A stretch of DNA of 64,000 nt from Anaerolineales bacterium (GCA_040899905.1 JBBDZX010000005.1:629722-693721), one strand, 5' to 3'. Counted from the stretch's first letter, positions 28,068 through 58,832 are shown. Numbers and translations: made by a program. The notes: a model not told the origin generated them from the letters alone.

Positions 28068-29105
28068 TCAGTCGCAGAACGGGCTGCCGAGGTTGTTGAA
28101 TCCGTCGAGTTGCTCCGCCAGGCTGACCATGGTTTCCTTGTCGAGGGAGGCCAGGGCATCGTTCACCTGGTCGATGACCTCGCCGGTCGTCAACGGATAG
28201 TCGACGTCCGACGATTCCGAGTTGAGCAGAGCCGCCACCGCAGCCCGGAGGAGGATCTGGGCTCCGCCTTCAGCCCCCTGTCCACCACCGTACTGCAGAG
28301 CCATAAGCAGGCTGTCGTCGGCCAGGGCGCTCAGGTCTGCCGGAACGCTGAACACACTGCCGACCGTCTGATCGGGGGTGTAGGTCGTCCACGCTTCAGG
28401 GTGATTCTTCCAGAACCCGGGCGTGCAACCCTGTCCGCCGTCTTCCTCTTCGGCGGTGATCTCGATGTTGTCCACCGCCGCCGATCCGCCCAGAAAGATC
28501 CTCATGAAGTCGCCGGAGAGACCGACGGCCACGTCGGCCCGTCCGCCGTCGCCGGTCACGGGCAGCGGGACGGTGCCCTGGGACGCGCCTCCCAGGAAGA
28601 CCTCGATGAAGCCTCCTGGCTCATCCCTCTCGACATCCAGAATGGTGAGCTGATCAATGGTCACGACTCCCGGACCCCAGCCCGAAAAGTCGAAATCCCA
28701 GTAGGCACCCGCCACGTCCGCGTCGTCGGGGCGGTCGAGCAGGCCGTCGGCCGGATCCTCGTCCCGCAGGTTCTCTGCAATGATCAGCACCAGCCCAAGA
28801 TCCGGCTGGAAGAGATCGTCATCGCCGCCCGTGCACCCTCCGGTGCAAGTGGCGTCGAAGATGGCGGCCGTATTCGATGCGGGGATTTCCGGATTGAACC
28901 CGAACACGGCGACCGAGCCGCCGGCGTCGTCGCCGGAGATTCCGGCACCGGCACTTACAAGGCCGACGATCATGCCCTCCGCCAGGGCCTCAAAGTCGAT
29001 GGTGGAGGAAGAACTGGCAAATGCAGTGGAGACTGGCGCCAGGGCCGCCAGGACGATCAACCCAACCAGCAGCGGCCGGCCAGGATACGAAGTGTTGCGA
29101 GTCAC
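28068..29105 (-). CDS. secreted hypothetical protein, 345 aa
   Basis: It has a signal peptide (LLVGLIVLAALAPVSTAFA), an Asp/Gly-rich body, and a C-terminal module starting QGCTPGFWKNHPEAW and ending ...GSPFCD. Confidence 0.75.
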   Translation of the reverse strand: MTRNTSYPGRPLLVGLIVLAALAPVSTAFASSSSTIDFEALAEGMIVGLVSAGAGISGDDAGGSVAVFGFNPEIPASNTAAIFDATCTGGCTGGDDDLFQPDLGLVLIIAENLRDEDPADGLLDRPDDADVAGAYWDFDFSGWGPGVVTIDQLTILDVERDEPGGFIEVFLGGASQGTVPLPVTGDGGRADVAVGLSGDFMRIFLGGSAAVDNIEITAEEEDGGQGCTPGFWKNHPEAWTTYTPDQTVGSVFSVPADLSALADDSLLMALQYGGGQGAEGGAQILLRAAVAALLNSESSDVDYPLTTGEVIDQVNDALASLDKETMVSLAEQLDGFNNLGSPFCD

Positions 29106-29221: not shown

Positions 29222-30093
29222 TCATCCCGCCTTGGTCCCGAGCAGTCCCGAGGCCCGCAGCCACGCGCCGGTCCGGGCCAGGCCCTCCTCAAGCTCCGTG
29301 GAGGCCTCGAACCCGAGTGCGGTACGCGCTCGCCCGGTGTGGAAGGCGGTGTTCCCGGTGAAAAACTTCAGGCTTCGGCGGTTGAACGGGGGCTGCCTTC
29401 GCACGAGACCGAACTCCGCTTCCAGGGCCAGGCCGCCCAGCCAGGCCGCGAACCCGGGGAAACACAGACGAGGCGGCTTGACGCCCAGCTCGCCTGCCAG
29501 CGTGTCCGTGTATCCCCAGAGTCGACACAGAAGAACCGTCCGGCTCGGATACTGCGGGCCAGCTTGATCGTGCGGGGGCAGCCGGCGCCGTAGACCCAGG
29601 CGGGCCGCACTACTACAACCGCGTACCCCGTACAGCCGGCATACTCAAGGACTCGTCTTTCGCCATCCAGTTAGGAACGCCCATAGGCCGGATCCGGCCG
29701 GCATTCGCTACCCTCATCCGCCAGAGGCTTCCGGAAATCGCCAAAGGGCCCGACGCGACTGCAGTGGACGAAGCGGCGGACCTGCGCGCTAGGGCATCGC
29801 TCCACGAACCGACCCCGCCCTCGACATTTACCGTCGTGAACTCCTCTTCACAAACTCCCACTTCGAGGTGCAGACTCGCAAGGTGAAAACAAACGTCTTG
29901 ACCCGAAGGCTGCGGATCAAGATCCGGGTCGCGGAATCTGCTTCGATAACCTTCAGAGCTCGCTCTCCGGAAGTCGGCCCAAGCCGGCCGGATCGATATC
30001 CACCGCGGTTACGTTGCGCCCGCGGGAAAGCTGGTCGCGCACCGGATGGCGCCCTATGAACCCGCCTGCCCCGGTGATGAGGACGTTGAAGCC
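29222..30093 (-). pseudogene. NAD-dependent epimerase/dehydratase, heavily decayed (lost start, several stops and frameshifts)
   Basis: The pieces lie in three frames: FNVLITGAGGFIGRH...; RPAWVYGAGCPRTIKLARSIRAGRFF; and ...FTGNTAFHTGRARTALGFEASTELEEGLARTGAWL. It is collinear with the intact paralog at 31649-32638. Confidence 0.8.
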
Positions 30094-30827
30094 TCAGGTT
30101 TCCTTCCGGCCACGACAACGGCGTACCCGTGGCGGGCCGGTATAAGGTGGTCGAGTTTGGATACCAGCCAGAAGAAGGGATACACCAGCGAATAAAGCCG
30201 GTAGCTCTTCCCGCCTGATCGAAGCTGGTCCTCGCTCTGGGGCGCGATCTGGCGGGCCTTCACCGGTGCCTTTCCTCGGCCTGCCAGGAAACTCACGTAA
30301 GCGAAGTTGATGATCAATTCCAGCATTTCCGTGAAGAACCTGACATAGTATGCCTGGTCATGCTTATGCAACCCGACCCGCCGGAGCTGACTCTCAAGCT
30401 CTTCTAGGCGAAATCCAATGACGCGATGCCCGTACACTTCCGGAGTCATCCCGATTAACTGTTTGATCCTTACCGCCAGCATCTGTGGATCGTCGTTGGG
30501 CGTTGAAACAATGACCCGCCCGCCCGGCCTGGTGATGCGTGCCAATCCGCAATTGAACGGCTCCAATTGATGAATGTGTTCGTGGACATCAATTGTCAGC
30601 ACGAGGTCAAACGAGCCGCCCGGGAAGGGCAGCTCCGCGGCAGCGCTCTCAGGCAGCTCGGCACGATCCCCGGTGACCCCTTTCTGGCGCTTCTTCAATG
30701 TCCTTCGGAACATCTTCAGCTGCCACAGTTCGGATGAGACTTTGCCAGCCAATCCGGCCTTGGGCCGAGCATTGGCCACGTTGATGAGCGTTCCTTTCCA
30801 TTCCATACCGAACGGCGTACGTTTCAC
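30054..30827 (-). CDS. methyltransferase-like protein lacking the SAM-binding motif I (open frame retained)
   Basis: It is a paralog of 32689-33501 (FDLVLTIDVHEHI vs FDQIVILDFFEHI, with similar C-terminal hydrophobic tails). About 50 residues including the LDIGSxxG region are missing. Confidence 0.6.
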   Translation of the reverse strand: MKRTPFGMEWKGTLINVANARPKAGLAGKVSSELWQLKMFRRTLKKRQKGVTGDRAELPESAAAELPFPGGSFDLVLTIDVHEHIHQLEPFNCGLARITRPGGRVIVSTPNDDPQMLAVRIKQLIGMTPEVYGHRVIGFRLEELESQLRRVGLHKHDQAYYVRFFTEMLELIINFAYVSFLAGRGKAPVKARQIAPQSEDQLRSGGKSYRLYSLVYPFFWLVSKLDHLIPARHGYAVVVAGRKPEASTSSSPGQAGS

Positions 30828-30878
30828 TTTGGTCCATGCCGACCGTCAGGGCTGGTCCCGCCTCGTCTCAGGTCGCCA

Positions 30879-31406
30879 CTAGCGGCCAGCTGTCATGATG
30901 CGCTTGCCAAGGATCGCAAGGATCGCGACGGCACCCGCGTAGACGGACTCGAAGGCCAGGAAGGTCAGGTGCGAGGCGTCTATCAAGCCTTCGCTGTGGT
31001 TGACGTTCGGGAATATCTGCAACGGGGCCCGCACGGCCTCGTAAGAGAAGGGCCACCATAACAACACCCCGGCCCCACCACCAATCATGTCCAGCAGCAC
31101 GTGCGATCCATAGGTAAGAAACGAAATCGAGAATGCCGTTCCGAATCTTCCCCTGGCAATCCACTTGATCAGAAAGGCGATAAGGGTGCACACGGCCAGA
31201 GTAAACACCAGGCTGTGCGTGAAGGTGTGGTGAATTCGCCTCGAGGCCACGAGCTGGATCAGAAAATCCAGATCGGCCAAATTGGAGAGCGCCATGATCC
31301 CCACGATCTGCCAAAATAGCCTGGCTGCAATAGGATTGCGGGGCGTATCTGGATGCAGGTAGGCGAGCGCCACGCCGGTTACAGTGTGAGCCAACGGAGA
31401 CGGCAT
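30879..31406 (-). CDS. DUF457/YdjM-like membrane-bound metal-dependent hydrolase
   Basis: MPSPLAHTVTG..., HHTFTHSL and GSHVLLDM histidine motifs, multi-TM. Confidence 0.75.
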   Translation of the reverse strand: MPSPLAHTVTGVALAYLHPDTPRNPIAARLFWQIVGIMALSNLADLDFLIQLVASRRIHHTFTHSLVFTLAVCTLIAFLIKWIARGRFGTAFSISFLTYGSHVLLDMIGGGAGVLLWWPFSYEAVRAPLQIFPNVNHSEGLIDASHLTFLAFESVYAGAVAILAILGKRIMTAGR

Positions 31407-31648
31407 GCCGCTGATTCTAAGTCGCCAGCAGGGGATCCGAAAGGCCCCCACCACCCTCTGAATCTGACGGTCGATCTTCCGTATGAAACAATCTAATTGG
31501 CCTCACCCATCCTCAATAATCGCTTCTCCTGCCAACAGTGGTCACTAAGTCCGAGTTAATTCATGAATTCGTCTTCAACCCTTCTATGTCTGCTACTTCA
31601 AATCGATCTGGTACAAATTTGCAGATACTCCACTGCTCGTCCGATATT

Positions 31649-32638
31649 CTAGAGATACTCGTTCTGGCGGTACCACACTTCAGTTCGCCTCAGGCCCTCG
31701 GAGAGGTCAATCTCTGGCGCGTATCCGAGCTCCTGCTTGGCCTTGCTGATGTCGAAGGCCCGATCCTGACGAAACCAATCAATACGGCGCCGAAAGACGG
31801 GAGGATCAATCTTGAACGGCTTATAGAGCATCTCGATGGCAATGGCAGCTAACCAGGCGGGCCAAAATGGGAGCCTGATGATTTTCACTTTGACGCCCAT
31901 CGATTCGCCTACTTTTCTGACCAGATCATTTAAGGAGAAGTAATCCTCGTCAGCGATCAAATACGTCTCGCCTTTTGCCTCGGGCCTCTGCATGGAGAGC
32001 AGGAACGAATCGACCAGATTGTCGATATATACGGGATGATACGTGGTCTTGCCATTCCCCAACATCACGAACCATCCCGAGCGTACTCGGCGGAACAGGA
32101 TCAACCATCTCTCAGGATCGCCGGGCCCATAAATGGCCGCGGGGCGGATAATGGTTGCATCCATACCTGCGCTTATGTATTCTTGAGCTACCTCTTCGCC
32201 CTTATATTTCGTATATTGATAGTAATCGGCAGGGGCGATAGGTGCAGCTTCGTTGCCGGGTGGCGCTTTTACATCCCCGTGCACTCCGCATGTGCTGCAA
32301 TAGATGATCTTGCTAACTTTCGCCTTGACGGCCGCCTTGAAGACATTGCGAGTGCCGTTAACATTAACATCCCAGTAGACTTCATCAGGCACATTAATGA
32401 CTCTGAACGCAGCGGCTAGGTGGAAGATCACGTCCACCCCTTCCGCTGTGTTTTCGACCAATTCGGAGTCGGTCACAGATCCCAGGACTATTTCTGCGCC
32501 CGCATGAGTCAGTTCCTCGTGAAACAACCCCGGTTGATTGTCTAAGACTCGGACCTTGTGTCCGTCGCTTATGAGCCGCCGCACCAGGTGTGATCCGGTG
32601 AACCCTGTACCTCCAGTGACCAGGATACTCATCGCCAT
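31649..32638 (-). CDS. NAD-dependent epimerase/dehydratase
   Basis: ILVTGGTGFTGSHL, a YxxxK region (YQYTKYKGE) and a lower-GC codon usage. Confidence 0.9.
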   Translation of the reverse strand: MAMSILVTGGTGFTGSHLVRRLISDGHKVRVLDNQPGLFHEELTHAGAEIVLGSVTDSELVENTAEGVDVIFHLAAAFRVINVPDEVYWDVNVNGTRNVFKAAVKAKVSKIIYCSTCGVHGDVKAPPGNEAAPIAPADYYQYTKYKGEEVAQEYISAGMDATIIRPAAIYGPGDPERWLILFRRVRSGWFVMLGNGKTTYHPVYIDNLVDSFLLSMQRPEAKGETYLIADEDYFSLNDLVRKVGESMGVKVKIIRLPFWPAWLAAIAIEMLYKPFKIDPPVFRRRIDWFRQDRAFDISKAKQELGYAPEIDLSEGLRRTEVWYRQNEYL

Positions 32639-32688
32639 GCTTTGTGGTCCTCCTCGAACCTAACTCCCGACATCGGAAACGCCCGAGA

Positions 32689-33501
32689 TCAACCAAGAGT
32701 ACTTTGCTGGTCTTTGAGTCTGCGCGCGCGAACGATCAACATGTGATTGCTTGGCACAAATGGCAAGCTATCAAGCCAGGTGATCAGCCAAGCAACGGGG
32801 AACATCAACCGGTAGACCATGAACAGTGCTCGATGGTCGTCAAGATCTTGATCTGTAACGATATTGCCCTTTTTTGCCGCACCAGGGACAGCCCGCCGCA
32901 CAAGCGAAAAGGCAAAGGCCAGCAGCGTGTCAAACATGTGGCCAAACAGCCCTGAGTAATAACGATGTTCCTCAATCGAAAAGAAACCCGAGAGGAGTTC
33001 CTCCAATGAATTCAATGAGTAGCCGGGACGGACATGTCCATGAGCTTCATCGCCCTGATTCAACGCTTCCCGGACGATCCTTACCATACCCGACTGCCAA
33101 TGAGGAACATTGACCACGAGGGCCCCGTCCGACTTGATGATCCGGTAAAGTTCTTGCACAAACTCTCGATCTGTCTCGATATGCTCAAAGAAGTCGAGGA
33201 TAACGATTTGATCAAATTCATTGCTTCCAAAAGGCGTGGACTGTCCATCAATTTGGTACACGTCTTCACGAACTAATCTTCGAATCGTTTCCACCGCCCT
33301 CTGGTCTAAGTCGGCGCTCTTCCATCGCCCGCCACCTCGACGCAGAAAATAGCTTATGACGCCGTTGTCGGATCCAATATCGAGGCAGTCGAGACCCGCA
33401 GTAGAGCCTATGAATTCGCGAAGGGTCGTCCACTTCTGCCGTTTAAGAGGCGATCCTCGATATAGTTGGAGCGCCCGATCTACGACTTGTGTAGCACTCA
33501 C
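32689..33501 (-). CDS. class I SAM-dependent methyltransferase with hydrophobic C-terminal extension
   Basis: CLDIGSDNGVISYFL (motif I) and ILDFFEHI. Confidence 0.8.
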   Translation of the reverse strand: MSATQVVDRALQLYRGSPLKRQKWTTLREFIGSTAGLDCLDIGSDNGVISYFLRRGGGRWKSADLDQRAVETIRRLVREDVYQIDGQSTPFGSNEFDQIVILDFFEHIETDREFVQELYRIIKSDGALVVNVPHWQSGMVRIVREALNQGDEAHGHVRPGYSLNSLEELLSGFFSIEEHRYYSGLFGHMFDTLLAFAFSLVRRAVPGAAKKGNIVTDQDLDDHRALFMVYRLMFPVAWLITWLDSLPFVPSNHMLIVRARRLKDQQSTLG

Positions 33502-33658
33502 GAACCCACGGCCCTTCGGGATACCTGACCAATCATGATGGAACGCGGCATCGGAGGTACTCTGTGATCCATTCTGGCTGCAATCTCTGGGCAGAGCCGG
33601 CTCCCATCCGATCGCAAGATTGAAGGAGGTATGCCCTGCGGAGATTCTCCCTTAGAGC

Positions 33659-35323
33659 TCAAGGCAGCTCGGCAAGCGGCACTGAGTCTTCATTCTCTAC
33701 GTCTGACGATAACGAGCGCCAGCCAAGAACCTGGGCCATGATGTCCTGGATCTCCTGAAGTGTCGATTGCGAAGGGGGACCGGCGGAACCAATATCCGTC
33801 CGCCTGAGCACAACGTCAGACGGTCTGCGCGCCATTTCCTCTTGGATCGCGTAATAAATCTGGCATCGCAATACACTTGACTGGCCAGCAATCGCTTGCA
33901 GCTTCGACAAGTCATCCTGCGCGTACGCCAGCACCCTTTCAGCCTCGGAACCGTAGGCTTGGGCAAGCTGCCGGATTACGGATTCGGAGAGGAAGGAGAA
34001 ACGTGCTTGAAGCGCTGACGTTTCATCCTCCAGCGACGTAATCTGACCACCATGAACAGGGATCGATCCGGTGCGGGACGGCGGTACCGGGATATCGAGT
34101 CGATGCGCCACGAGATCGATGGCCCGTTCGGCCAACCATCGTGCACTTGTGTACTTAGCACCAATTAGGCTGATCAGGTTCCGAATTCCTAGATCAGATT
34201 CATGGTCGGCCAGCTCGCTTTCGCGCAAGAGCTCAGGCCTCCCACGGTCTACGCGGCGCGGGTCCAATGGTTGAAGACCCGTGTGGACCATGCTGACGCT
34301 GCTGCGATCCAAATTGGCCCCCGGGTAGACCTCGTTTACGCCTGAAATGAGCCGTTCAATCTCGGGCTCAATCGGGCCCACGTGTTCTGGTCGATCGACT
34401 GGAGCGCCGTGCATTGTTCCGATGATCGACCAATCTCTCCAGGGCACAATAAAAATGGTCTTTCCCGACCGCGGTCGACTGAGGTCGCCTTTCATTTGGA
34501 CACATGACCGCAGACCCACACCAACCCCGTCGATGATTTTCGGTACGACGATATTGACTGCTCGGGATAGTTTGAAACGTGGCCGCCGTCGTCCGGTCGA
34601 GGACAGCATTTGCTCGACCCAGGGCCCTGTCGCGTTTACTACGAAGCGAGCGTGAATGTCGAATCTCTGGCTGGACTCGAGGTCACGAGCTCGAGCTCCA
34701 ACGGCCGATTGCCCCTCCAGCAGGATCGATTCTGCTCTGACATAGTTGGCCAGTATCGCGCCACGCTGGACCGCTGATTTCAGGATCGAAAGAAGCATTT
34801 GTTCGGTGTTGAGCACCTGCGCGTCATACCAGACAGCGGCTCCGGTGATCTTCGTTGACGATTGCAGCCCTGGAAGTTGACTTAGAACTTCATCCCGAGT
34901 CAGCATCGTAGAGCGGGGCAGATGAGAGTTCTTCCCGAGGTCCCGGTTTCGATCGTACCCGACCAGATCGGTTACTCTAAGCGCCACGCTCAACACACCT
35001 CTCGAGTGGCGCCCCCGACCGTCGGTGGGAAAGAGCATACGCAAAGGCTGGACAAGATGAGGCGCAATCGTCATCCACGCCCGGCGCTCCTTGATCATTG
35101 TCCTCATCAAAGGCAGATCGAAGTCCTGCAGATAGCGTAGCCCACCGTGAACAGTCTTCATGCTGTTGGAAGAAGTCGCGCCACCGAAGTCGCCTTTCTC
35201 GATCAAGGCCGCTTTCAATCCTCGATGGGCCGCGTCCCAAAGCGCGCAAGCGCCGTAAATTCCGCCTCCCACTATCAGCACGTCGTGCCGACGGCTCGCC
35301 AGAGCACTGAGATCACGCTTCAT
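33659..35323 (-). CDS. FAD-dependent glycerol-3-phosphate dehydrogenase/oxidase-like oxidoreductase
   Basis: DVLIVGGGIYGACALWDAAHRGLKAALIEKGDFGGATSSNSMKTVHGGLRYLQ. Confidence 0.88.
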   Translation of the reverse strand: MKRDLSALASRRHDVLIVGGGIYGACALWDAAHRGLKAALIEKGDFGGATSSNSMKTVHGGLRYLQDFDLPLMRTMIKERRAWMTIAPHLVQPLRMLFPTDGRGRHSRGVLSVALRVTDLVGYDRNRDLGKNSHLPRSTMLTRDEVLSQLPGLQSSTKITGAAVWYDAQVLNTEQMLLSILKSAVQRGAILANYVRAESILLEGQSAVGARARDLESSQRFDIHARFVVNATGPWVEQMLSSTGRRRPRFKLSRAVNIVVPKIIDGVGVGLRSCVQMKGDLSRPRSGKTIFIVPWRDWSIIGTMHGAPVDRPEHVGPIEPEIERLISGVNEVYPGANLDRSSVSMVHTGLQPLDPRRVDRGRPELLRESELADHESDLGIRNLISLIGAKYTSARWLAERAIDLVAHRLDIPVPPSRTGSIPVHGGQITSLEDETSALQARFSFLSESVIRQLAQAYGSEAERVLAYAQDDLSKLQAIAGQSSVLRCQIYYAIQEEMARRPSDVVLRRTDIGSAGPPSQSTLQEIQDIMAQVLGWRSLSSDVENEDSVPLAELP

Positions 35324-35595
35324 GGCTTCCGCTTCGTCGCAGTGTCATCGCTACGCCTTACGTCCTGATTTTGCACCAAGTGCCTGGGACCAAAGCGCTG
35401 GATGGCTCCAGAGGATCGCTCTGCATTACCCCTCTCAGGCCACGCACGGCTTTAAGGTGTGGATTCTGGTTTCGCTAAAGGGATTGTTGGCATCGAAGGA
35501 CTGCCGGCCCAGATCGTGATGCCGACACCGCGAGTTGGTTTGCTCATGCCAATTTGCTATAGGAGGCCCTGGAGCATTATGAACTAACAAGTGGG

Positions 35596-36804
35596 TCACT
35601 TCTCGGATGGCGAGACTGCCTGGTCCACGAGTGAAACTGGGCTCACCAGCGACTGGTAAATGCTTTCTATGCGACTCAAATACTTATCCGGATCATGATT
35701 GGTTTTGGCGAATTCCATGGCATGCTGAGCGAGAAGGGATCGATGAGCTTCATGTTGGAGCAGGCGAATCAAACCCTCGGCCATCCCTTCTGCTGTTGGC
35801 TCGACCAACATGGCTATATCGTCATTTAACACGAGCGTATGGGCGCGAATATTGGTTGCAATGATGGCTCTCCTTGCATTCAGGTAGCTGTAGACCTTCA
35901 GGGGCACAGAGGTGCCCTCAATTCGAGGTGAAATTAAGACGTCGGCGAGCTCCAAATGAGCTAGCGCCTCGGACGTCGATGTCCTCCCCACGAAGCGGAC
36001 CTTCGAACCAACGTTCAAGGAAGAAGCAACTCGCTTCAGCTCGCTAATCTGAGCCTCAGTACCCCCTACCAGCACGAGCAAAGCATGCGGGTCTTGTTTC
36101 ACCACGCGCCGGAACGCATGCAACAAGACGTCTAAGCCCTGATACCTTTCGAAGCTACCCGTGTAAACGATCACCTTTTGCCCGTTCCGCTTGATGTTCT
36201 CGCGCATCACGTCAACGGTCGCATGGTCACCATCATTCGAGAGGCCAAGCGGCGTGTTTTCGATCGTCCAAATTTCGCTACCGGGCACAACCGATCTTAC
36301 GTAATCCGTGAGATCCTCACCAATCGTAATCACGCTGTCCGCCGTTCGGAGAACAGCACGTTCAAGTATGGCAAACAGATTAGGGAACGGCCAGACGTCG
36401 AGATACTTAAAGTTTTGAAGCTGTCTCGGCAGGCTCGAATGCATATCATATAGATGGCGTGTCCGGAAGATTGCGGCAAGAATCATGGCGAAAAAGGCGG
36501 CCTCTTCGTGAGAATGAATGACATCGTACCGTCGCCGCAGCAAGCGGCCTATTGATTTCAGCAGAACGAATCCGTCGAGGAATAGCTTTGTGAGGGAAGG
36601 CCCGACTCTTACTTCATTGATAAACGGGATATTGGGGATGCGGTGGATAGTTACACCCGGAATCTCAACGTTTTCACCAAGGTGATACGTGACAAGATCC
36701 ACCTCGATACCAAGCTTCGAGAGCGCCTGGAGTCTCTGGTGAACACTAATGGGTGTCCCTCGCGGCTCAAAGAACGGCTGCGGAGCTATCATAAGTACCT
36801 TCAT
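35596..36804 (-). CDS. GT4-family glycosyltransferase
   Basis: [21 protein letters not shown] follows an AAGGAG RBS, and an E-x7-E-type C-terminal region is present. Confidence 0.9.
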   Translation of the reverse strand: MKVLMIAPQPFFEPRGTPISVHQRLQALSKLGIEVDLVTYHLGENVEIPGVTIHRIPNIPFINEVRVGPSLTKLFLDGFVLLKSIGRLLRRRYDVIHSHEEAAFFAMILAAIFRTRHLYDMHSSLPRQLQNFKYLDVWPFPNLFAILERAVLRTADSVITIGEDLTDYVRSVVPGSEIWTIENTPLGLSNDGDHATVDVMRENIKRNGQKVIVYTGSFERYQGLDVLLHAFRRVVKQDPHALLVLVGGTEAQISELKRVASSLNVGSKVRFVGRTSTSEALAHLELADVLISPRIEGTSVPLKVYSYLNARRAIIATNIRAHTLVLNDDIAMLVEPTAEGMAEGLIRLLQHEAHRSLLAQHAMEFAKTNHDPDKYLSRIESIYQSLVSPVSLVDQAVSPSEK

Positions 36805-36850
36805 TCGGAGTCTCCTTACTGCTTCTGGCACTCGAGGTTCTCCCAGCGAG

Positions 36851-36952
36851 CTATTGTGCCTGTGGGTGCTGACAAGCGCCCGTCTGGTTGGCGCTGGTAG
36901 GCGCCTCGCGCGGCTCGAAGAACGGCTCGGGTGCGATCATCAGGACCTTCAT
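36851..36952 (-). pseudogene. GT4 5' fragment (about 23 homologous codons, then divergence and a stop)
   Basis: [23 protein letters not shown]... Its ATG forms an ATGA overlap with the stop of the SIS-GAF gene. It has higher GC than the intact GT4 48 nt downstream. Confidence 0.7.
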
Positions 36953-38238
36953 GGCTCCCCCTCCGCCTCACTCACCTCCGTCATCCGCGGCCATGCGGCG
37001 CCGGCGCCCTGGGCCGGGGCAGCGCGCAACTCCGACCGCTGCTTGACACCCTCCGCCCGAGGCGGGATGGGGGGCGCCCCGGCACTCAAGGAAATGCCCC
37101 CCGCGAGGGCGCTCAACAGGGCCAAATCCCGTTCGGTGAAGCGGCGAGTATCCGGATTCACCAATGTCAGGACACCGATTACACGTTCGCCACCTATCAG
37201 CGGCACGCTGATGGCCGAGCGGGGAGCATTGAGGGCGTCCCACTCCGAGGCCAGCCAGCGAGGATCGCGCTGGGTGTCCTCGACGAGGGCTGGGTTCCCG
37301 TTCCGGAACACCCAGCCCGCCAACCCCCTCCGGAGGGTATCGGCCAGCTGGTGGGGAGCCGGCGGACGGACTTCGCCGGCGTAAGCCACCGCGCCCTCGA
37401 CCAGGTTGCCCGCCTCGTCGAGGACCATCAGGCTTCCGCTCTGCGCCCCGACGTTCTCGACGGTCAGCAACAGCGCCTCCTGCAGCAGGTTGCTGAGGTC
37501 CTTGCCCTCGTACAGCCCTTGCCGCAGTGCGCTCAACGTGCGGCGCCATTTGCCGTCGGTCCCCAAACCATCCAGAACGGCCGGTACTGCCTCGGGGAGA
37601 ACCGCGTCGGACGAACGGCCGAGCTGTTCGGCCTCGTCCCGCAGCGCTTTGCAAATCATGTGCTCGAGCATCAAGTGGACGTCTTCGACGTGCTCGACGC
37701 AGTCGCTCTCGACATGCACGTTCCACTGCACCAGTGAGGCCAGGCGGCCTCCGGAGAATCCAGTGAATCCGATGGTGGTCGCGCCCCGCAGGTTGGCCGC
37801 CTCGACCGCTTCGAGCACGTTGGGGGAATTTCCCGAGGTGGAGATGGCAATCACCACGTCGCCGGATTGCATCAGGCCGATGAGCTGTTCGGCGAACACC
37901 CTCTCGAAGCCGTCGTCGTTGGCGTAGGCGGTGAGGATCGCCACGTTGTCCGTAAGGCCGATCACCCGGAAGCCGGGCCAACCGGCGCGCCGGGTGTTCT
38001 TGGCCAGATCGCAGACGAAGTGCGAGGCGGTCGAGGCGCTGCCTCCGTTCCCCAGGATGAAGACATGCCGCCGGCTCAGCCGCGCTTCGTGCAGAAGGTG
38101 AACCACATGCTCGACCCGGTCCCGGGGGAGCCGATCCAGCGTTGCCTGTAGGTCCGACATATAGGTATCGATAGTGCCCATCCCTCCTCCTCCCGCGGCC
38201 CGGCCGGGACTGCTGCCGGTGCCGGCGGCCAGCGTCAT
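36949..38238 (-). CDS. SIS (GmhA-like sedoheptulose-7-phosphate isomerase) fused to a C-terminal GAF domain
   Basis: SIS domain: [21 protein letters not shown]...[17 protein letters not shown]-like domain: [30 protein letters not shown]...[12 protein letters not shown]...[20 protein letters not shown]...[13 protein letters not shown]. The ATG at 38238 has an ATGA overlap with the kinase stop; an alternative ATG lies at 38181. Confidence 0.8.
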
Positions 38239-40177: not shown

Positions 40178-41680
40178 TCAGTACGCGCCGCGGGCTTTCA
40201 GGACCGCCGGGATGGTCTGCCAAAGCAGCTGCAGATCGAGCCAGATATTCCAGTTCCGAATGTAATGCATGTCCAGCCGCACGCGCTCCTCGTAGCCGAT
40301 CTCCGATCGACCGCTCACTTGCCACAGTCCGGTAATTCCGGGGTGGACAGTGAGCAGGTTGATCCCCCACTGCTCGTAGCGGGCCATCTCGGCCGGCGAG
40401 ATCATGCGTGGGCCCACGAGCGACATCTCCCGGCGGAGCACATTGAATAGCTGAGGGAGCTCGTCGAGGCTATAACGCCGCAGAAATCGACCCACCCGGG
40501 TCACGCGCGGGTCGTCCTTGAGCTTGTGCGCGTGGGCCAGTTCGGCCTGCAAGTCCGGACGATCGGCCAGGATCTGGTCTCCGTCCACGCGCATGGTCCG
40601 GAACTTGAAGGCGTCGAACTGCTGGGCATTGACCCCCATCACTCTGCGCCGATGGATGATCGGGCCGGGGGAATCGAGGCGGACCAGCAGCGCCAAGCCG
40701 GCCAGCAAGGGCGCCAGGAACACCACCGCCGCCGTGGTCAGGACGTAATCCAGGGCGGCTTTGATGGCCGAGTCGACTCCGGTCAGCCTCACCCGGTTCA
40801 CCCCGACCAGCGGCACGTAGGCCAGCTCTTTCACGCTCAATCCCGTGGTGATGATCTCGTACAGTCCGGACGACATCCGCAAGTGGATCCCTTCCGACAC
40901 CCCATATCGGCGAAAGATGGCCAGCATGGCCTCGCGCGAGAGCGCGCTGCTCGCCAGGATCAGCTCCTCCACGCCGTGTTCGACGATCAACCGATCCAGA
41001 TCCCCGAGGGCGCCCACCACTCGCAGGTTCTGCGGCAATTTCATGCCCGGATCCTGCTCGCCGTCCACGAAGCCCACCAGCTCGAGCCCGGAAGTCCTCC
41101 ATCGCAGGAGCTGCTCGGCCAGAGCGCTGGCCTCGGCGTTCGCCCCCACGATCAGCGACCTCGCCATGAAGAAGCCGTGCGATCTCAACCTGTACGCGAT
41201 TCGACGGATCACCAGCCTTCCAAGGCTGATGAACAGGAAGGTCAGTCCCCAGGCCATCAACACCCAGCCTCTGGCGACGATGAGTTGAGGATCGAGGAAG
41301 CCGGCCATTACGATGAACAGCAGCCCGATGCTGGTCCCGCGGAAGACCCGCGAGTACTCCTCTGTCCCGCCCAGCAACACCTCACGCTGATAGAGGCCGA
41401 CCACGGCGAAGCTCAGGAGCCACACCGGAGTCAGAACGAGCACCAGCCTGTCGTAATAGACCTTCGACGCAAGCACCTCGGCGAAGATCGACAGGCCGGT
41501 CTCGAATCGGATCCAATAGGCGGCGCGGAGGGCGAGTCCCACCATGAGCAGGTCGGTGACGATCAGGCTGACGATGAGCGCTTTCCACTCCCAGACGCGG
41601 ACGTTCCAGCGCCGGAGCGCGTTGCCTCGCTCCGCCTTGTTCAAGGGGATGCCCTCAAGCACGGGCGCGGATGAGCCCAT
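40178..41680 (-). CDS. polyprenyl-phosphate sugar phosphotransferase (WbaP/large PGT type, priming enzyme)
   Basis: N-terminal TM helices and a C-terminal sugar-transferase domain (DELPQLFNVLRREMSLVGPR...PGITGLWQVSGR). Confidence 0.92.
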   Translation of the reverse strand: MGSSAPVLEGIPLNKAERGNALRRWNVRVWEWKALIVSLIVTDLLMVGLALRAAYWIRFETGLSIFAEVLASKVYYDRLVLVLTPVWLLSFAVVGLYQREVLLGGTEEYSRVFRGTSIGLLFIVMAGFLDPQLIVARGWVLMAWGLTFLFISLGRLVIRRIAYRLRSHGFFMARSLIVGANAEASALAEQLLRWRTSGLELVGFVDGEQDPGMKLPQNLRVVGALGDLDRLIVEHGVEELILASSALSREAMLAIFRRYGVSEGIHLRMSSGLYEIITTGLSVKELAYVPLVGVNRVRLTGVDSAIKAALDYVLTTAAVVFLAPLLAGLALLVRLDSPGPIIHRRRVMGVNAQQFDAFKFRTMRVDGDQILADRPDLQAELAHAHKLKDDPRVTRVGRFLRRYSLDELPQLFNVLRREMSLVGPRMISPAEMARYEQWGINLLTVHPGITGLWQVSGRSEIGYEERVRLDMHYIRNWNIWLDLQLLWQTIPAVLKARGAY

Positions 41681-45560: not shown

Positions 45561-46699
45561 TTAGAGTCCCATCAGCCGGGCGGCGGTGACGCGCTGGATA
45601 TCGGATGTCCCCGAGTAGATCGTCCCGCCGATCGAATCGCGCAGGTCTCGCTCGACTTCGAACTCGGTCATGTACCCGTAGCCGCCGTAGACCCGGATGG
45701 CGTCCAGACTGGACTGGAGGAAACATTCGCTCAGGTAGAGCTTGGCCAGCGCCGCCTCCTGGACGGCCGGCTGTCCGCTCTTCTTCATCCAGGCGACCTT
45801 GTACAACAGGAGGCGGGCCGTCTCCAGGCGGACGCGCATATCGACGATCCGATTGGACACGGATTGAAACTTGCCGATGGGCTGACCGAATTGCTGGCGT
45901 TCCCGGGCGTACCGGATGGACCCCTCCAGCTGCTGCTCCATCGCCCCCAGATGGCTGGCCAGGATACAGCTGCGTTCCCACTCCATCGAACTGTTGAAGA
46001 TCTTCGCTCCGGCCCTTCCGATCCGAGGCGGCCGGCCTCGGGAAGGAAGCAGTCCTCCAGGATGACCTCCGCCATCGGCGACGTCCGCAGACCCAACTTT
46101 TCGATCGCCCGGCTGACGCGCACCCCGGCGTCCCGCGCTCGACCAGAAACGCCGTCACGCCCCACATCCCCTTGGACCTGTCGACGGTGGCGAACACGAG
46201 GGTGATGTCGGCGACGGGGGCATTGTCACGAAGGTCTTCGTCCCGTTGGGCAGGTAGCCGTCGCCCCCGCGTTCGGCACATGCCCGCAGGCTGTAGGCGT
46301 CCGTTCCCGAATCGGGCTCACTCATCGCATGCGCGCCGATCCACTCGCCGCGCACGAGCGGTGGCAGGAAGCGAGCCTTCTGCTCCGGGGTGCCGAAGTC
46401 GAGGATGGGCATCTGGACCGACCACATTTGTGCGTTGATGGCGAAGATCAGGCCGTTGTCGCGGCAGCCGTAGCCGGGGCCTTCCATCGTCAGCATCGTC
46501 GTCAGGATCTCGGCGCCGCGCCGCCGTAAGCCTCGGGCATCGGCAATCCCTGCAAACCGAAGCGAGCGCAGACGCGCCAGCCGTCGCGGGAGAGTTCGCC
46601 GGCACGATCGCGCTCGATCAGCCCTTCGTTCAGCTGCCGGCCGAGGTCAACGGCTGCCTTGAGGTAGGTCAGCTGTTCGTCCGTCCAGGAGAAGTCCAT
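45561..46699 (-). pseudogene. acyl-CoA dehydrogenase with at least 4 frameshifts
   Basis: Collinear ACAD segments lie in alternating frames. They are MDFSWTDEQL...; ...AHAMSEPDSGTDAYSL...GTKTFVT; NAPVADITLVFATVDRSKG...; ...IEKLGLRTSPMAEVILEDC...; and MEWERSCILASHLG...IYSGTSDIQR. Confidence 0.85.
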
Positions 46700-51473: not shown

Positions 51474-53150
51474 TCAGGAATGACCGTCAGAATCTCGGCC
51501 TTCGCCCGAGGCCCCCGGGTCCGTTGTGGAACGCGCCCGGCCCCGAAGCCGGTCTACGAAGGCGCGGATTGGGCCACGCCCGTTGCCGACTCCTGGCTCC
51601 ATGCGGCCGGAACCATACCAGTACCCCAGGTAACCGTGCGAATAGGCCCGACTCGGGTCATTGATCACGATCCCGACGATCTTGCCATTCACGCGGCGAA
51701 GCTGATCGACGGCATGCTTGAGGGCCGACTCGGGGGTGTGCTTCAGGCGAACCACCACAAGGACTCCGTCCACGCTGGATGCCAGGACAGATGCATCAGC
51801 CAGCAGCGAGGGTGGGCTGTCAATAATCGTGACCTCGTACTCCTCATTCACGCTGGCCATGATCTGTTTCATGCGGGGGGAGTTCAGGATTTCGACTGGG
51901 CCAGGGCCGCCGCTCCCCGCCGGAATGACCCACAGGTTGTCGCTCACCGAGGAACGCTGCGAAACCGTCTTCAGCGGCGGCTTGGCGCCGAACAGATGCC
52001 GCAGGCCCTCGAGATTCGTGACCCCCAGCAGCTTGTGAGAGCTCGGCCGGCGAAGATCGGCATCGATCAGCAGTGTCTTCCTCCCCGCCTGCGCGTAGGC
52101 CCGCGCCAGGTTGGCGGCCACCATGCTCTTCCCATCCCCCGAACCGGGACTGACGACCAGGATGGATCGAAGAGGGATCTCGCCACCGGCGAAATCCAGA
52201 TTGATCCGCAGCGCGCGGAAGGCCTCGTAGTCCGGAGTGGCCGTATCAGTCACCTGGACACCCCCAGGAGAATCATCCTGGCTCCGCACCGAGGCGCGGG
52301 CAAGCCTGCCAATCACCGGGGCATCGGCGGCGCGCATGACGTCCTCCGGCTCGCGCAGAGTTACGTCCAAATGCTCGAGAAGATACGCCGCGCCTCCGCT
52401 GAGCGCCAGCGCGAGCGTGGCCGCCAAAGCGACATAGACCCAGTTCTCAGTGTTGACCGGGCGAGTTGGTAGGTCAGCCGACTCAACAACGCTGATGGTG
52501 TTGACCGGCTCTTCGTCGGTCACACTCAGTAGGGACGCATAGGTGGATTGCAGCGTCGTGAGCTTCGTCTGGAGCGCAGACAGGTCTGTCTGTGCGTCGG
52601 CGATTTGTTCGGCGCTGGTGAACTCCGCCAGGTCGAGCTGTGCCACAGCTATGGCATCCTGAGTCTCGATGATCTTCTCCTCCAGGTAGCTCAGCTGCTC
52701 CTGAATAAACTGCTCACCCTCCGGGTTGACCTGAGACATGGTCTCAGGGACGCGGGCGATGAGCTGCACCGCCAGTTCATTAGCTACCGCTTGGGCGCGG
52801 GCTGGGACTGTGTCTTGGACTACGATCTCGATCAGCTGTCCATCTACAGGAACGGTAACAGTGTAGTTTGGCAGTCCGTCCAGCCCCAGTGCCTCCATCG
52901 TCGCATTGCGAACCGGCTCACGCTTGGCGATGTCGGCGTAGAGACCGGCCAGCAGACGCGGGAGTGTAAAATCCGTGTTCGTCGGATTCGGGGATTGGAT
53001 TGTGCTGCCGACAATGAGCGTCGTCCGCGAAGCATAGAGAGGCTGCTGTCGCTCGACGGCAAAGTAGCTTGCCCCCGTCGCCAACAGGACGGAAAGCACA
53101 ACGAGCCACCACCAGCGTGCGATCGGACGAAGAGTAAAAGAAGCATCCAT
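51474..53150 (-). CDS. Wzz-domain / BY-kinase polysaccharide co-polymerase (Wzc/CapAB-like tyrosine autokinase)
   Basis: The N-terminal chain-length-determinant domain has TM helices. Walker A is SPGSGDGKSMVAANLA, Walker A' is LLIDADLRRP and Walker B is VTIIDSPP. The tail is Tyr-rich (YSHGYLGYWYGSG). Confidence 0.9.
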   Translation of the reverse strand: MDASFTLRPIARWWWLVVLSVLLATGASYFAVERQQPLYASRTTLIVGSTIQSPNPTNTDFTLPRLLAGLYADIAKREPVRNATMEALGLDGLPNYTVTVPVDGQLIEIVVQDTVPARAQAVANELAVQLIARVPETMSQVNPEGEQFIQEQLSYLEEKIIETQDAIAVAQLDLAEFTSAEQIADAQTDLSALQTKLTTLQSTYASLLSVTDEEPVNTISVVESADLPTRPVNTENWVYVALAATLALALSGGAAYLLEHLDVTLREPEDVMRAADAPVIGRLARASVRSQDDSPGGVQVTDTATPDYEAFRALRINLDFAGGEIPLRSILVVSPGSGDGKSMVAANLARAYAQAGRKTLLIDADLRRPSSHKLLGVTNLEGLRHLFGAKPPLKTVSQRSSVSDNLWVIPAGSGGPGPVEILNSPRMKQIMASVNEEYEVTIIDSPPSLLADASVLASSVDGVLVVVRLKHTPESALKHAVDQLRRVNGKIVGIVINDPSRAYSHGYLGYWYGSGRMEPGVGNGRGPIRAFVDRLRGRARSTTDPGASGEGRDSDGHS

Positions 53151-53219: not shown

Positions 53220-53363
53220 ATCGTCATAAGAATGTTCCTCTGCGGTAGGTCACCAGATCGACAGTGTGCCCCAGCCGGTCACCCCACGCAACCGCCGCAA
53301 AACGCTGATCGGCGTGCCCCGCGGTTCAAAGAACGGCTCGGGCGAGATCATCAGGAACTTCAT
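53220..53363 (-). pseudogene. GT4 5' fragment (third copy of the MK(V/F)LMI(A/S)PEPFFEPRG start)
   Basis: MKFLMISPEPFFEPRGTPISVLRRL..., then a frameshift and a stop. It has an ATGA overlap with the upstream chimeric ORF. Confidence 0.7.
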
Positions 53364-53764
53364 GGCTCCCCTTCCTCCTTGGCCGATCCCTTCGTACGGG
53401 GCCAGCCCGAGGGGACGGAACCAGCCGGCCTCGCCAACGCGACGCCCACCGGCGCCCGCTCCCCGCCGTTGTTGAGCGAGCCCAGGATGTTCACCTGCGC
53501 GTCGAACAGGGGATCGGCCACCGACCGGCGCACGTCCATCTGCGCGGCATGATGGTTGACCACCTCGGGTCGCTCCCGCTCGAAGACTTTCCGGACCGCT
53601 GGGTCACGGATGTCCATTTCATAGACGCGCGCCTCTTGGTTGAGGTTCGACCGCCTGCCGGTCGAGAGAGAGTCCAGGACGACCACATCATGGCCCTCCT
53701 GGAGATACAGATCGACCACGTACGACCCGATAAACCCGGCGCCGCCGGTAGCCAGGATGGTCAT
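53360..53764 (-). pseudogene. chimeric remnant: epimerase N-terminal 98 codons fused to a SIS-GAF-tail-like ~36 codons
   Basis: An AAGGAG RBS precedes [25 protein letters not shown]...[12 protein letters not shown]...VNILGSLN, by eye clearly homologous to 39209-40141. It then continues ...SGWPRTKGSAKEEGEP*, compared with ...[16 protein letters not shown] at 36949. Confidence 0.7.
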
Positions 53765-53929
53765 GAATGCTCCTTGCTTGAAGGTGAGTGGCTCGGCCTG
53801 CCGCGACCGCATGCCGAAGGGGGTATCACCGCCGGCCCGGCCAGCGCCTGTTGCGCCTTCCGCGCCGTCCTGGCCTTCTTCGCAGGCAGCCGGTAGAGAC
53901 GGCTTCGCCCGCTTTGGTTTTTCCACCTG

Positions 53930-54060
53930 GCCGCCACCAACGACCGGGATGGTCTGCCAGAGAAGCTGCAGGTGGCGAACACGAGGGTGAGGTCGCAGGC
54001 GGGGAATTGGTCACAAATGTCTTCGGCCCGTTGCGCACGTCGGCGTTGGCCGGAAGGTCT
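53930..54060 (-). pseudogene. fused fragments: ACAD internal piece joined to the last codons of a sugar phosphotransferase
   Basis: 53971-54045 matches 46186-46260 at about 80% (manual alignment, 60/75). CCGGGATGGTCTGCCAGAGAAGCTGCAG matches 40208-40235 (26/28). Confidence 0.65.
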
Positions 54061-54114: not shown

Positions 54115-55551
54115 TCACGCTGGCCTTGGCAAGGGCTGCTCATCCGAGCGGGAAGAGTCATGCATGGTGGCGACCCGATGCAGGCTGAGCGCCGCTCCCA
54201 GGAACATCCATCCTGGTACAGCGTCCCGCATGCCGGCCAGTGTGATGTTGTACACGAAGGGTAACAACCAATCCGCCAACATTCCGGCCGCCACCATCCC
54301 TATCAGTCCTCCGAATAGGGAGTAGCTAAGCGCCCTCAGGAATCCGGAGACTCTCTGGTAGCCCCTTAGCCGCCAGAGTAGGGCGCCTGTGGAGACGGAG
54401 TACCACAAGAAAGCGGCGGCTCCTAGGAGCCCGGTCTGGGCCAGGAGGTCAATGTACTGATTGTGTGAGTTGAATAGCACGTTCCAGCCGAGAATCGGGT
54501 TTTCGATGGTATAGAAACGGTAGTTTGCGGGGCCAAAACCGAGTAGAGGACTCCGCTCCATCACCATCCCGACGACAATCTTCCCTGCCTCCACTCGAGT
54601 GACAGCGCTGTACTCCTCGTTAATGAGCAGCAGATCAACTATCTCGGACGCAAAGATGGCTCCCAGTATGAGCATAAACACCGTTGCTACAGCCGCAAAT
54701 CGCGGCCTTGCAGCCCATAGGAGGGCAGTCAAACCAACCAATGCAGGGAGCCATCCTGAGGCAAACTGGGGAGTGATTACTAGTCCCATATACAGAGAGA
54801 CGGCCGTGATCCCTACCAAGACGACTCGCCACAACACCGAGAGCTGGCTATTAAAGAAAGCCTGCCCGAACGCGAGGCACGTCATCCAGGTCCAGAAGAG
54901 GGGTCCGTTTGGACTCTGAACAACCACGAAGGATAGCGCCGCTTGCACGGAGGGAAAGAAAGTGAGCAAGACATACACACTGCCAAAGCCCAGGAACAGC
55001 CAGACCAACCGTTTCAGCCACCGCTCCGTCACAATGTAGCGATCCATTATGAAGACCAGACACGGGAGCAGGACGAGGACCCCAAGCTGGCCCAACTGAG
55101 CTGTCATTGGGGCAGGATCCAGGGGATACCACGGTAGTTGTCCGGCAAGAAAGGAAAGGAGCGTGACTGCAATAAAGATAGACAGCGGTAGATAGATAGA
55201 CGGCACCGTGAGCCGAACGTTCTGTGAGTCGCCGGTAGATACCTCAAGCAGGAAAGCCCCCACCACGAGCGCAAGACCAACCACGCTCATACTTACCTCT
55301 GTTCCTGTTCCGGTCCCAATCGTGATCGGCACCAGGAAGGAAAGCATCATGAGGCCTAGCAGCCCGACCGGTGGCCGTTTGAGCACGATGACTGTCAAAA
55401 GTAGAGCGGCGATCCCGCCGAGCGCCACGGCGATCAACTGCCGCGAACCGAATAGGCCAAGGATGGGACCGCTCAGAAGCACCAGAACCACTATCGCCAA
55501 GCGGCGATAACGATTATTGCTTTCCTGCCGCCACTCCCTTGTCCGAATCAT
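54115..55551 (-). CDS. O-antigen ligase/polymerase-like (Wzy_C domain) membrane protein
   Basis: It has at least 10 TM helices and FNSHNQYIDLLAQTGLLGAAAFLWY. Confidence 0.85.
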   Translation of the reverse strand: MIRTREWRQESNNRYRRLAIVVLVLLSGPILGLFGSRQLIAVALGGIAALLLTVIVLKRPPVGLLGLMMLSFLVPITIGTGTGTEVSMSVVGLALVVGAFLLEVSTGDSQNVRLTVPSIYLPLSIFIAVTLLSFLAGQLPWYPLDPAPMTAQLGQLGVLVLLPCLVFIMDRYIVTERWLKRLVWLFLGFGSVYVLLTFFPSVQAALSFVVVQSPNGPLFWTWMTCLAFGQAFFNSQLSVLWRVVLVGITAVSLYMGLVITPQFASGWLPALVGLTALLWAARPRFAAVATVFMLILGAIFASEIVDLLLINEEYSAVTRVEAGKIVVGMVMERSPLLGFGPANYRFYTIENPILGWNVLFNSHNQYIDLLAQTGLLGAAAFLWYSVSTGALLWRLRGYQRVSGFLRALSYSLFGGLIGMVAAGMLADWLLPFVYNITLAGMRDAVPGWMFLGAALSLHRVATMHDSSRSDEQPLPRPA

Positions 55552-55779
55552 GCTCCCATCCTGGCGCGGGTCCGACCGTGTGGCTCCGGACCCAGTCGCT
55601 TCACCAACTCGAACCGGTCAAAACATCCAAGGGAAAACCTAGGGGCGGCCACGCTCGGCTGGCGGGTCGAACCCATATAGGTCAGGAGACTTCTCTCCAG
55701 CGACAGGCCTGCGATGAGCATGGGACGCAACCACAGCCGAGCCCTAGAGAGGGTCTCAGGCTCCGGCGGTCGCGTCGAT

Positions 55780-57281: not shown

Positions 57282-57287
57282 TAGGAG

Positions 57288-58544: not shown

Positions 58545-58832
58545 GAAGTTTGGGCCAATCCCGTTACGGAGTCGAACTCAGAGAGGGCGATAACTGCGAG
58601 CCCTGGTTCGCCGGCCCCGATCCGTCATCGATCGGAAACGGTTGCACCACCGGGAACCCTGGGATCGAGACGCACGTGGCGGAGTCCACAACGTAGTTAA
58701 CCTTGTGTTCCACAAGGGAGTCGACCACCGAAAGGGGGCCACTGATGCGCGCTCGTAGTAATCAACATCGCTTATCACGCCGCCCCGGTTGACGAAGACC
58801 CTCACCGGCTCAGGCCAGCGTCTGCGCAGAAT

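Follow-up and report, generated by a model that had tools for sequence, protein, structure and literature searches.

The window analysed here is a 64,000-nucleotide stretch from the metagenome-assembled genome (MAG) of an Anaerolineales bacterium of the Chloroflexota (GCA_040899905.1, JBBDZX010000005.1:629722-693721). From ~64 kb down to ~19 kb nearly all of its genes lie on the minus strand, and their Pfam domains assign them to polysaccharide biosynthesis. They encode several GT2 and GT4 glycosyltransferases, a Wzy_C protein, a Wzc-like P-loop protein, a UDP-GlcNAc 2-epimerase, a Bac_transf initiating transferase, a GalE-like epimerase, a GHMP kinase, a fusion of a GmhA-like SIS domain with a GAF domain (SIS-GAF), a carbamoyltransferase, an LPG-synthase-TM protein and a PMT_2 protein; a fragment of a Wzt-like ABC ATPase lies at the window edge. 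The subject of this analysis is the variable part of this surface-polysaccharide locus, between 36952 and 29222, where an insert of ~5.4 kb (36850 to ~31481) carries four genes of lower GC content and is bordered by pieces of genes that it appears to have displaced (Table 1).

Table 1. Features of the variable region and its surroundings, listed in the direction of transcription (window coordinates)
Feature	Position	Strand	Description
Wzy_C protein	54115-55551		Pfam
'Ghost' second head, fragments	53246-54051	-	Directly after the GT2-Wzy genes; from self-BLAST and sequence
CbiA/AAA_31 P-loop protein	51474-53150		Pfam
Bac_transf sugar transferase	40178-41680		Pfam
SIS(GmhA-like)-GAF gene	36952-38181	-	Right flank, last head gene; Pfam SIS_2 and GAF_2; TGA overlaps stub ATG
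GT4 5' stub	36851-36952	-	Displaced gene; 33 codons and TAG (36853-36851); high GC, GC-ending codons
Cassette leader	36805-36850	-	46 nucleotides upstream of intact ATG at 36804; own Shine-Dalgarno sequence AAGGAG
Insert GT4 glycosyltransferase	35596-36804	-	Incoming; 402 residues; Pfam GT4/GT1 domains; GC 0.52; GC3 z -4.8
Insert GlpD-like FAD oxidoreductase	33659-35323	-	Incoming; 554 residues; Pfam DAO and DAO_C
Insert methyltransferase	32689-33501	-	Incoming; 270 residues; motif I intact; Pfam Methyltransf_11 positions 1-95; GC3 z -6.2
Insert SDR epimerase/reductase	31649-32638	-	Incoming; 329 residues; Pfam Epimerase
AT-rich 3' tail of cassette	31481-31648	-	GC about 0.47-0.50; without homology to relatives
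Remnant of displaced GlpD	31416-31480	-	Last ~20 codons (~65 nucleotides); from L019 alignment
YdjM/DUF457 gene	30879-31406	-	Intact; ancestral position, outside insert; Pfam YdjM
Decayed methyltransferase	30054-30827	-	In-frame deletion; stop lost
Epimerase pseudogene	29222-30093	-	Six disabling lesions relative to L019
Secreted hypothetical protein	28068-29105	-	Left conserved flank; then carbamoyltransferase, LPG-synthase-TM

A conserved head of four genes (sugar transferase, epimerase, GHMP kinase and SIS-GAF) precedes the variable part. In a sister species, represented by 24 contigs, the genes that follow SIS-GAF encode a GT4 glycosyltransferase, AsnB, a first methyltransferase (MTa), a GlpD-like protein, YdjM, a second methyltransferase (MTb), an epimerase, a secreted protein, a carbamoyltransferase and an LPG synthase. 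Six places of this species are shown (L006, L011-L016), and the order is identical in all six. The same order is present in a more distant relative, L019, whose secreted protein has 61% amino acid identity to that of the window. The arrangement from SIS-GAF to the carbamoyltransferase, being common to the sister species and this outgroup, is taken as probably ancestral. All of these genes have a GC content of 0.63-0.67 and a GC content at third codon positions (GC3) of 0.77-0.83 in L006, and the L019 locus is uniform at a GC of 0.59-0.64.

The window agrees with the sister species on both sides of the variable part. Its head has 84% nucleotide identity to L006 and 93-97% to three other loci (L007-L009). 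At the protein level, identity to L006 is 82.6% for SIS-GAF, 80% for the secreted protein and 84% for the carbamoyltransferase. Left of the variable part, synteny with L011-L016 runs through the genes for the secreted protein, carbamoyltransferase, LPG synthase, a methyltransferase, a hydrolase, PMT_2 and DUF5060 and continues to ~19 kb. Nucleotide identity to L006 is 84% down to 36909, inside the GT4 stub, only 50-65% over the interval that follows, and ~79% again from ~29030; the rise from ~0.55-0.65 to ~0.80 takes place at about 29030-29090. A scan of genome contigs with SIS-GAF recovered two loci only (L001 and L002), neither of them a close sister. In NCBIfam, the head yields matches to gmhA (112 bits against a cut-off of 209) and HddA (158 bits against a cut-off of 600), which suggest resemblance at the family level only and do not support GDP- or ADP-heptose equivalogs.

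The step in base composition can be read directly from the sequence. GC content is 0.50-0.58 over 30.0-36.8 kb versus 0.62-0.70 on either side. Two-breakpoint segmentation of 22-44 kb places the breaks at 30290 and 36840, with a GC of 0.545 between them and 0.649 beyond, for a log-likelihood gain of 104; the composition changes abruptly on the right and gradually on the left. Codon usage changes as well: GC3 is 0.59 for the GT4 gene of the insert, 0.62 for GlpD, 0.54 for the methyltransferase and 0.63 for the epimerase (z of -4.0 to -6.2), against a background of 31 genes with a mean of 0.785, a standard deviation of 0.040 and a minimum of 0.702. All four lie below this minimum and are the only clear outliers, and their Karlin codon-bias z scores range from +2.2 to +5.1. 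YdjM, with a GC3 of 0.74 (z -1.2), is inside the background range, and the methyltransferase that lacks motif I is marginal (0.69, z -2.5). A first-pass annotation, made from the sequence of the window, had noticed a lower-GC block between high-GC neighbours, and these measurements bear it out.

A second lower-GC block lies at 54115-64000 (GC 0.56-0.60, GC3 0.65-0.71) and contains GT2, GT4, phosphodiesterase-family, Wzy and Wzt-like genes. Its GT2-Wzy part has 90% nucleotide identity to L006, the highest L006 identity in the window, and is lower in GC than its neighbours there too.

The similarities of the four insert genes are discordant with those of the flanks. In identity matrices, they share 43-54% of amino acids with their sister counterparts versus 80-93% for the flanking genes, and only 42-50% with L019. 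The closest relative of its GT4 and GlpD is L010, an unrelated 3.5-kb contig with a GC of 0.60 that has GT4, GlpD and methyltransferase genes in the same order as the insert and a different upstream gene. The insert GT4 is 62% identical to L010, its best non-self match, and 54% to L006; GlpD is 60.5% identical to L010, 44% to L006 and 42% to L019. The insert methyltransferase shares 28-29% with every MTb-type protein, and the insert epimerase 33-37% with its counterparts at the end of the ancestral order. L010 indicates that this type of cassette exists elsewhere. It can be inferred that the transfer was into this locus and that the donor was probably another, lower-GC lineage of the Chloroflexota or Anaerolineales. 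NCBIfam names the enzymes through sub-threshold matches only: GlpD reaches 232 bits against glycerol-3-phosphate dehydrogenase, under the cut-off of 360, and the best matches of the epimerase, HpnA-like and OleD-like, are both under cut-off. The 3' tail of the cassette is predicted to fold no more stably than shuffled versions of it (z = +2.0).

The right joint lies at about 36850/36851, as placed by the GC breakpoint at 36840 and by the end of weak stub homology at about 36853. The truncated high-GC GT4 gene that begins at the ATGA overlap with SIS-GAF is as first annotated in the coordinates of its start and stop and in the position of the intact ATG beyond it; the spacer between the two measures 46 nucleotides rather than the 48 given then. 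Codons 1-15 of the stub are near-identical to the intact GT4 of the insert; beyond them, homology is weak but still significant as far as about codon 33 (z = 3.4-4.2 versus shuffles). Compared with the L006 GT4, the stub has 88% nucleotide identity over its first 43 nucleotides, and this homology stops at 36909. Its second half matches the L019 GT4 at 37 of 52 positions (z = 4.2). The two GT4 5' ends of the window are 84% identical over 44 nucleotides, with AT-ending codons in the insert gene where the stub has GC-ending ones. Third codon positions of this conserved 5' end vary freely among homologs, so the conservation is at the protein level only.

This arrangement is not that of a crossover within the conserved GT4 5' end, where the cassette had first been proposed to recombine. 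The old GT4 runs for ~100 nucleotides and then abuts foreign DNA 46 nucleotides before the new ATG; a crossover would have left one hybrid gene, and none is present. A Campbell-type single crossover at the same place was also considered and rejected, because its product would be two hybrid genes, not a stub with foreign upstream DNA behind it. A recombination boundary at the 3' end of SIS-GAF was considered as well. The last ~50 residues of this protein (window 36952-37100) form a hypervariable, probably disordered tail with 15-31% identity even among close relatives. The drop in identity there mostly reflects this C-terminal tail, which is common to all homologs, and no claim is made for it.

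Two similar GT4 5' ends in a MAG could also signal a chimeric contig, joined during assembly or binning at their common sequence (84% over 44 nucleotides). Such an artefact is barely credible here. Two Logan assemblies of different runs (SRR27977660 and SRR27977662) reproduce the sequence with 0 mismatches, L003 spanning both joints and L004 the right one only. By eye from the alignments, exact matches between the 5' ends appear shorter than would be needed to mislead a k-mer assembler. In addition, a chimera would not produce the GlpD 3' end as a matching second remnant at a distance of 5.4 kb.

That second remnant marks the left joint, which the fine GC profile and the end of homology to relatives place at about 31480. 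Homology to L019 is unbroken from 31477 through YdjM, the methyltransferase-like gene and the broken epimerase, with 71-78% nucleotide identity, and it opens with the end of GlpD. L019 7357-8154 aligns to window 31477-30681 at 71% nucleotide identity, and residues 541-557 of the L019 GlpD are matched at 59% amino acid identity. YdjM has 70% amino acid identity to L019 and 48% to L006. Relative to the ancestral layout, the window lacks the rest of GT4, AsnB, MTa and most of GlpD, which amounts to ~5.4 kb in L019 coordinates. In L019, YdjM and the MTb-type methyltransferase are fused in one open reading frame (ORF) of 492 amino acids (7429-8907), which argues that both act together.

The position of this joint revises the content of the cassette. 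The first-pass annotation had set the left edge at ~30.1 kb and counted the DUF457 (YdjM) and methyltransferase-like genes among the cassette genes, and it inconsistently listed the latter as a decayed resident too. Both genes are outside the insert, which ends at ~31.48 kb where the GlpD remnant abuts YdjM, and motif I of the methyltransferase was lost through a separate internal deletion. A broader version of the earlier boundary would have the whole of 36850-29222, including YdjM, the methyltransferase-like gene and the broken epimerase, arrive as one foreign cassette, such that the decayed pair was never resident. It would explain why all genes of the interval have 44-63% amino acid identity to L006 versus 80-93% in the flanks, and why L006 identity resumes only at ~29.05 kb. 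However, it is very unlikely, given that the GlpD 3' remnant sits directly upstream of YdjM as in L019 and L006, and that YdjM, MTb and the epimerase keep their ancestral order and position. GC3 also steps from 0.54-0.63 to 0.69-0.74 at ~31.5 kb, and relationships divide at the same joint: the block downstream is L019-like (68-74% amino acid identity), and the four insert genes are L010-like with 42-50% to L019. No donor-like contig was seen in which the four insert genes lead directly into this YdjM-MTb-epimerase allele, and this too counts against a single cassette.

The methyltransferase and the epimerase downstream of YdjM are damaged, and the lesions are seen directly in the alignments. 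The methyltransferase had been described as lacking motif I. It carries an in-frame deletion of 53 codons that corresponds exactly to the S-adenosylmethionine-binding motif I, and loss of its stop codon adds 12 codons; the product matches Pfam Methyltransf_11 at positions 42-95 only. The epimerase is as riddled with stops and frameshifts as had been reported. Compared with L019, its start codon has changed from TTG to TTC, single nucleotides are deleted at three places (29963, 29937 and 29816), 124 nucleotides are deleted at 29510, and an AAG codon has become TAA at 29671.

Both decayed genes resemble those of relatives. The methyltransferase has 68% amino acid identity to the MTb of L019, 54% to L006 and 43% to L001; for the epimerase the values are 74%, 63% and 53%, or 70.6% to L019 when read in the reference frame. 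Identity to L019 at the three codon positions is 0.80, 0.82 and 0.62 for the methyltransferase and 0.81, 0.82 and 0.56 for the epimerase. This pattern is still like that of genes under purifying selection, which indicates that inactivation was recent. The presence of two methyltransferase-epimerase pairs and two GT4 5' ends within 8 kb might suggest a tandem duplication of this gene set within the genome, with one copy decaying. The decayed pair, however, is far closer to its relatives (54-74%) than to the intact pair (28% for the methyltransferases, 37% for the epimerases and 25-37% overall), a difference that excludes tandem duplication for practical purposes. The codons of the two GT4 5' ends differ in the same sense, ending in GC in the stub and in AT in the insert gene, as does GC3 (0.54-0.63 in intact copies versus at least 0.69 in decayed ones).

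Relatives carry a high-GC GT4 after SIS-GAF and one intact methyltransferase-epimerase pair before the secreted-protein gene, which upholds the earlier view that a foreign cassette displaced resident genes in situ. In 10 of 10 related loci examined, there is a single pair, located beside a GlpD-like gene. The old pair may thus have become redundant through the incoming set of GlpD, methyltransferase and epimerase, as had been suggested. The single pair per locus fits this idea, and the causal step is inferred; decay might have followed from redundancy or from the loss of pathway partners.

Taken together, the locus is very probably the product of an exchange in which a foreign lower-GC segment of ~5.4 kb replaced a resident stretch of similar length, left remnants of the old genes at both joints and was followed by decay of the old methyltransferase-epimerase pair. 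The stretch lost would have begun at about codon 34 of the old GT4 and ended within the old GlpD, some 20 codons short of its 3' end. The segment, derived from a lower-GC donor, would have brought its own ribosome binding site together with GT4, GlpD-like, methyltransferase and SDR epimerase genes. It may have entered in one replacement event, or by insertion and then deletion. Either way, it would have supplied a complete alternative set of GlpD, methyltransferase and epimerase. Left behind downstream of an intact YdjM, the old MTb and epimerase would then have been inactivated, recently, by deletions, frameshifts and a nonsense mutation.

The joining mechanism is suggested by what surrounds the joints. 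Physical remnants of the displaced genes survive at both, so the joints appear illegitimate, made without shared homology, repeats or mobile-element genes. A repeat search of 28.8-37.2 kb found no direct or inverted repeats and no microhomology at the junctions, the GT4 5' homology excepted. Pfam domains of the region are biosynthetic only, with no integrase or transposase. Scans for tRNA genes and Rfam families recovered none near the cassette, the nearest tRNAs being at 1-4 kb of the window, and scans for promoters and terminators gave counts at or under shuffle expectation.

Several considerations weigh against this account of a replaced resident stretch. The stub beyond codon 15 and the 65-nucleotide GlpD remnant are both short, and their apparent homology is statistically modest. 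A pre-insertion allele was not found among the closest relatives in genome and metagenome scans, the nearest match to the methyltransferase-like protein in the metagenome scan being 67% identical (L020). Nor was a close donor found, the best relative of the insert GT4 among 5.8 billion proteins having 62% amino acid identity. Redundancy and decay are linked by correlation only. Both Logan assemblies may stem from the study that produced the MAG. Finally, the block downstream of the insert is intermediate in GC (0.58-0.65) and discordant with the flanks, so that 'resident' is a relative term, and the replacement may predate a larger transfer and have occurred in another lineage.

This last point concerns the history of the block itself. 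YdjM, the decayed methyltransferase and the broken epimerase are much closer to L019 than to the sister L006, and their third-position identity to L019 is 0.56-0.62 versus 0.46-0.50 in the flanks. The 'resident' block thus appears to be an allele of the L019 type, in phylogenetic conflict with the flanks on either side. L019-like, too, is the second half of the GT4 stub, which argues that an L019-type allele of the variable region was in place before the low-GC insert arrived.

Further layers are preserved at the other end of the cluster, where fragments of a 'ghost' second head remain. They comprise a fragment of an acyl-CoA dehydrogenase gene, 28 nucleotides of the 3' end of a sugar-transferase gene, codons 1-98 of an epimerase gene with the frame intact, the last 16 nucleotides of a SIS-GAF gene and a second GT4 stub, frameshifted and about 40 codons long. 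These fragments are collinear with L006 7200-8337 and 11245-11362 and have the same deletion joint between acyl-CoA dehydrogenase and sugar transferase. The epimerase piece of the ghost is 69% identical in nucleotide sequence to the intact copy (40141-39848) and 75% to L006, with a codon pattern like that left by selection. This divergence and codon pattern indicate that one head is a divergent homolog of the other rather than its recent duplicate. The locus is therefore a layered mosaic rather than one resident plus one import. The earlier scheme of that simple kind holds for the displacement of residents and fails for the 'resident' block, which is L019-type.

Further observations concern the surroundings of the head. 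An acyl-CoA dehydrogenase pseudogene (45561-46496, minus strand), broken into two ORF pieces, borders the intact cluster on its upstream side. L006 has a fragment of this gene as well (7568-7795, 80% nucleotide identity), between Wzy and the epimerase, and its presence in the sister species implies that the remnant predates their split. Over the 16 nucleotides before the GT4 start, conservation returns when the two stubs of the window are compared. In L007 (5013-5275), L008 (4676-5100) and L009 (3960-4600), the DNA directly after SIS-GAF is unrelated to the window, which indicates that the cluster is hypervariable from exactly that point.

The mosaic admits a nested history, in which ~24 kb (53246 to ~29100), comprising the Wzc-like gene, the intact head, the stub, the low-GC insert and the L019-type block, was imported whole from another Anaerolineales lineage into an L006-like locus, in place of its tail. 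The original head would then have become redundant and decayed into the ghost, and the replacement by the low-GC segment would have occurred elsewhere. This sequence of events is possible, if somewhat doubtful. The outer flanks are syntenic with the L006 species (90% nucleotide identity in GT2-Wzy and about 79% from the secreted protein to DUF5060), the ghost agrees with L006 in collinearity and in the deletion joint, and the two heads are divergent homologs, as the 69% identity of the epimerase piece indicates. The intact head is L007-like (93-97% nucleotide identity), and the ghost GT4 stub is L006-like where the stub at 36952 is L019-like. On the other hand, comparison at the level of the locus does not tell the native head from the imported one, and the left boundary (~29.1 kb) is drawn from one sister species. 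A nested import leaves the nature of the low-GC insert unchanged and affects only the place and time of the replacement.

Cassette exchange in the polysaccharide loci of Anaerolineales might also favour one breakpoint, the boundary between the SIS-GAF stop and the GT4 start. In this one genome, two independent GT4 stubs (34 and about 40 codons) are each fused to a SIS-GAF tail, and L007-L009 switch to unrelated DNA exactly after SIS-GAF. Nevertheless, the conservation of the GT4 5' end is at the protein level, neither junction falls within the conserved 45 nucleotides, and the idea is very unlikely. If a dedicated mechanism acted at this boundary, rather than selection plus chance, it would represent a new kind of cassette-exchange site.

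Three repeats were observed elsewhere in the window. An exact 28-nucleotide repeat (4017-4044 and 6192-6219) of the 3' end of a tRNA-Cys gene (3971-4043) flanks about 2.1 kb with an SBF-family transporter gene (4407-5510); the layout resembles att sites, and no integrase was seen. A 60-nucleotide direct repeat (1109-1168 and 1222-1280, 90% identity) lies just downstream of tRNA-Phe (1020-1095). An ORF of 672 amino acids without a Pfam match (6473-8491, minus strand) has internal tandem-like repeats (6495-6684 versus 6578-6809, 76-77% nucleotide identity).

Overall, the observations of the first-pass annotation are confirmed and its interpretation is partly supported. Two outcomes that would have changed the picture did not occur: relatives possess both the GT4 and one methyltransferase-epimerase pair, and the decayed copies are not the closest relatives of the intact ones. 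The remnants on two sides fix the exact interval exchanged, and the fresh pseudogenes show what became dispensable. A conserved head, a variable tail and a lower-GC import make up a pattern of Proteobacteria and Firmicutes, which the case extends to uncultured Chloroflexota. The module of SIS-GAF, GT4, GlpD-like, methyltransferase and SDR genes is widespread in that phylum (>1000 SIS-GAF and >6000 GT4 homologs) and biochemically uncharacterised.

One known process to which the locus can be compared is xenologous gene displacement in situ, in which distant homologs of discordant phylogeny take the place of operon genes and the neighbourhood is retained. The GT4, GlpD-like, methyltransferase and SDR families were likewise replaced by distant homologs in a kept context. 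However, the exchange was not gene for gene, as GT4-AsnB-MTa-GlpD gave way to GT4-GlpD-methyltransferase-epimerase, and physical remnants of the displaced genes survive, which is rarely seen. Like a genomic island, the insert is a compositionally atypical block of several kilobases with sharp borders. Unlike such islands, it has no integrase, transposase, tRNA target or flanking direct repeats, and it lies inside an operon that it continues in the same orientation.

The closest parallel is with O-antigen, capsule and exopolysaccharide clusters. The galactose-initiated O-antigen clusters of Salmonella have conserved flanks and a variable centre, with blocks of differing GC content and divergence that are read as different histories (PMC3715488). 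They also retain remnants of displaced genes at junctions, and an original gene degrades by serial deletions after a gene with the same role is gained (PMC3715488). The window has the same conserved flanks, variable centre, differing blocks, remnants and loss after replacement. It differs in that the host is an uncultured high-GC member of the Anaerolineales, that the anchor is a GmhA-like SIS-GAF fusion instead of galF or gnd, and that no insertion sequence or H-repeat element marks the junction. Its remnants are unusually clean at both joints, one gene having left its 5' end and another its 3' end. The case is thus a clean but ordinary example of polysaccharide cluster evolution that calls for no new mechanism.

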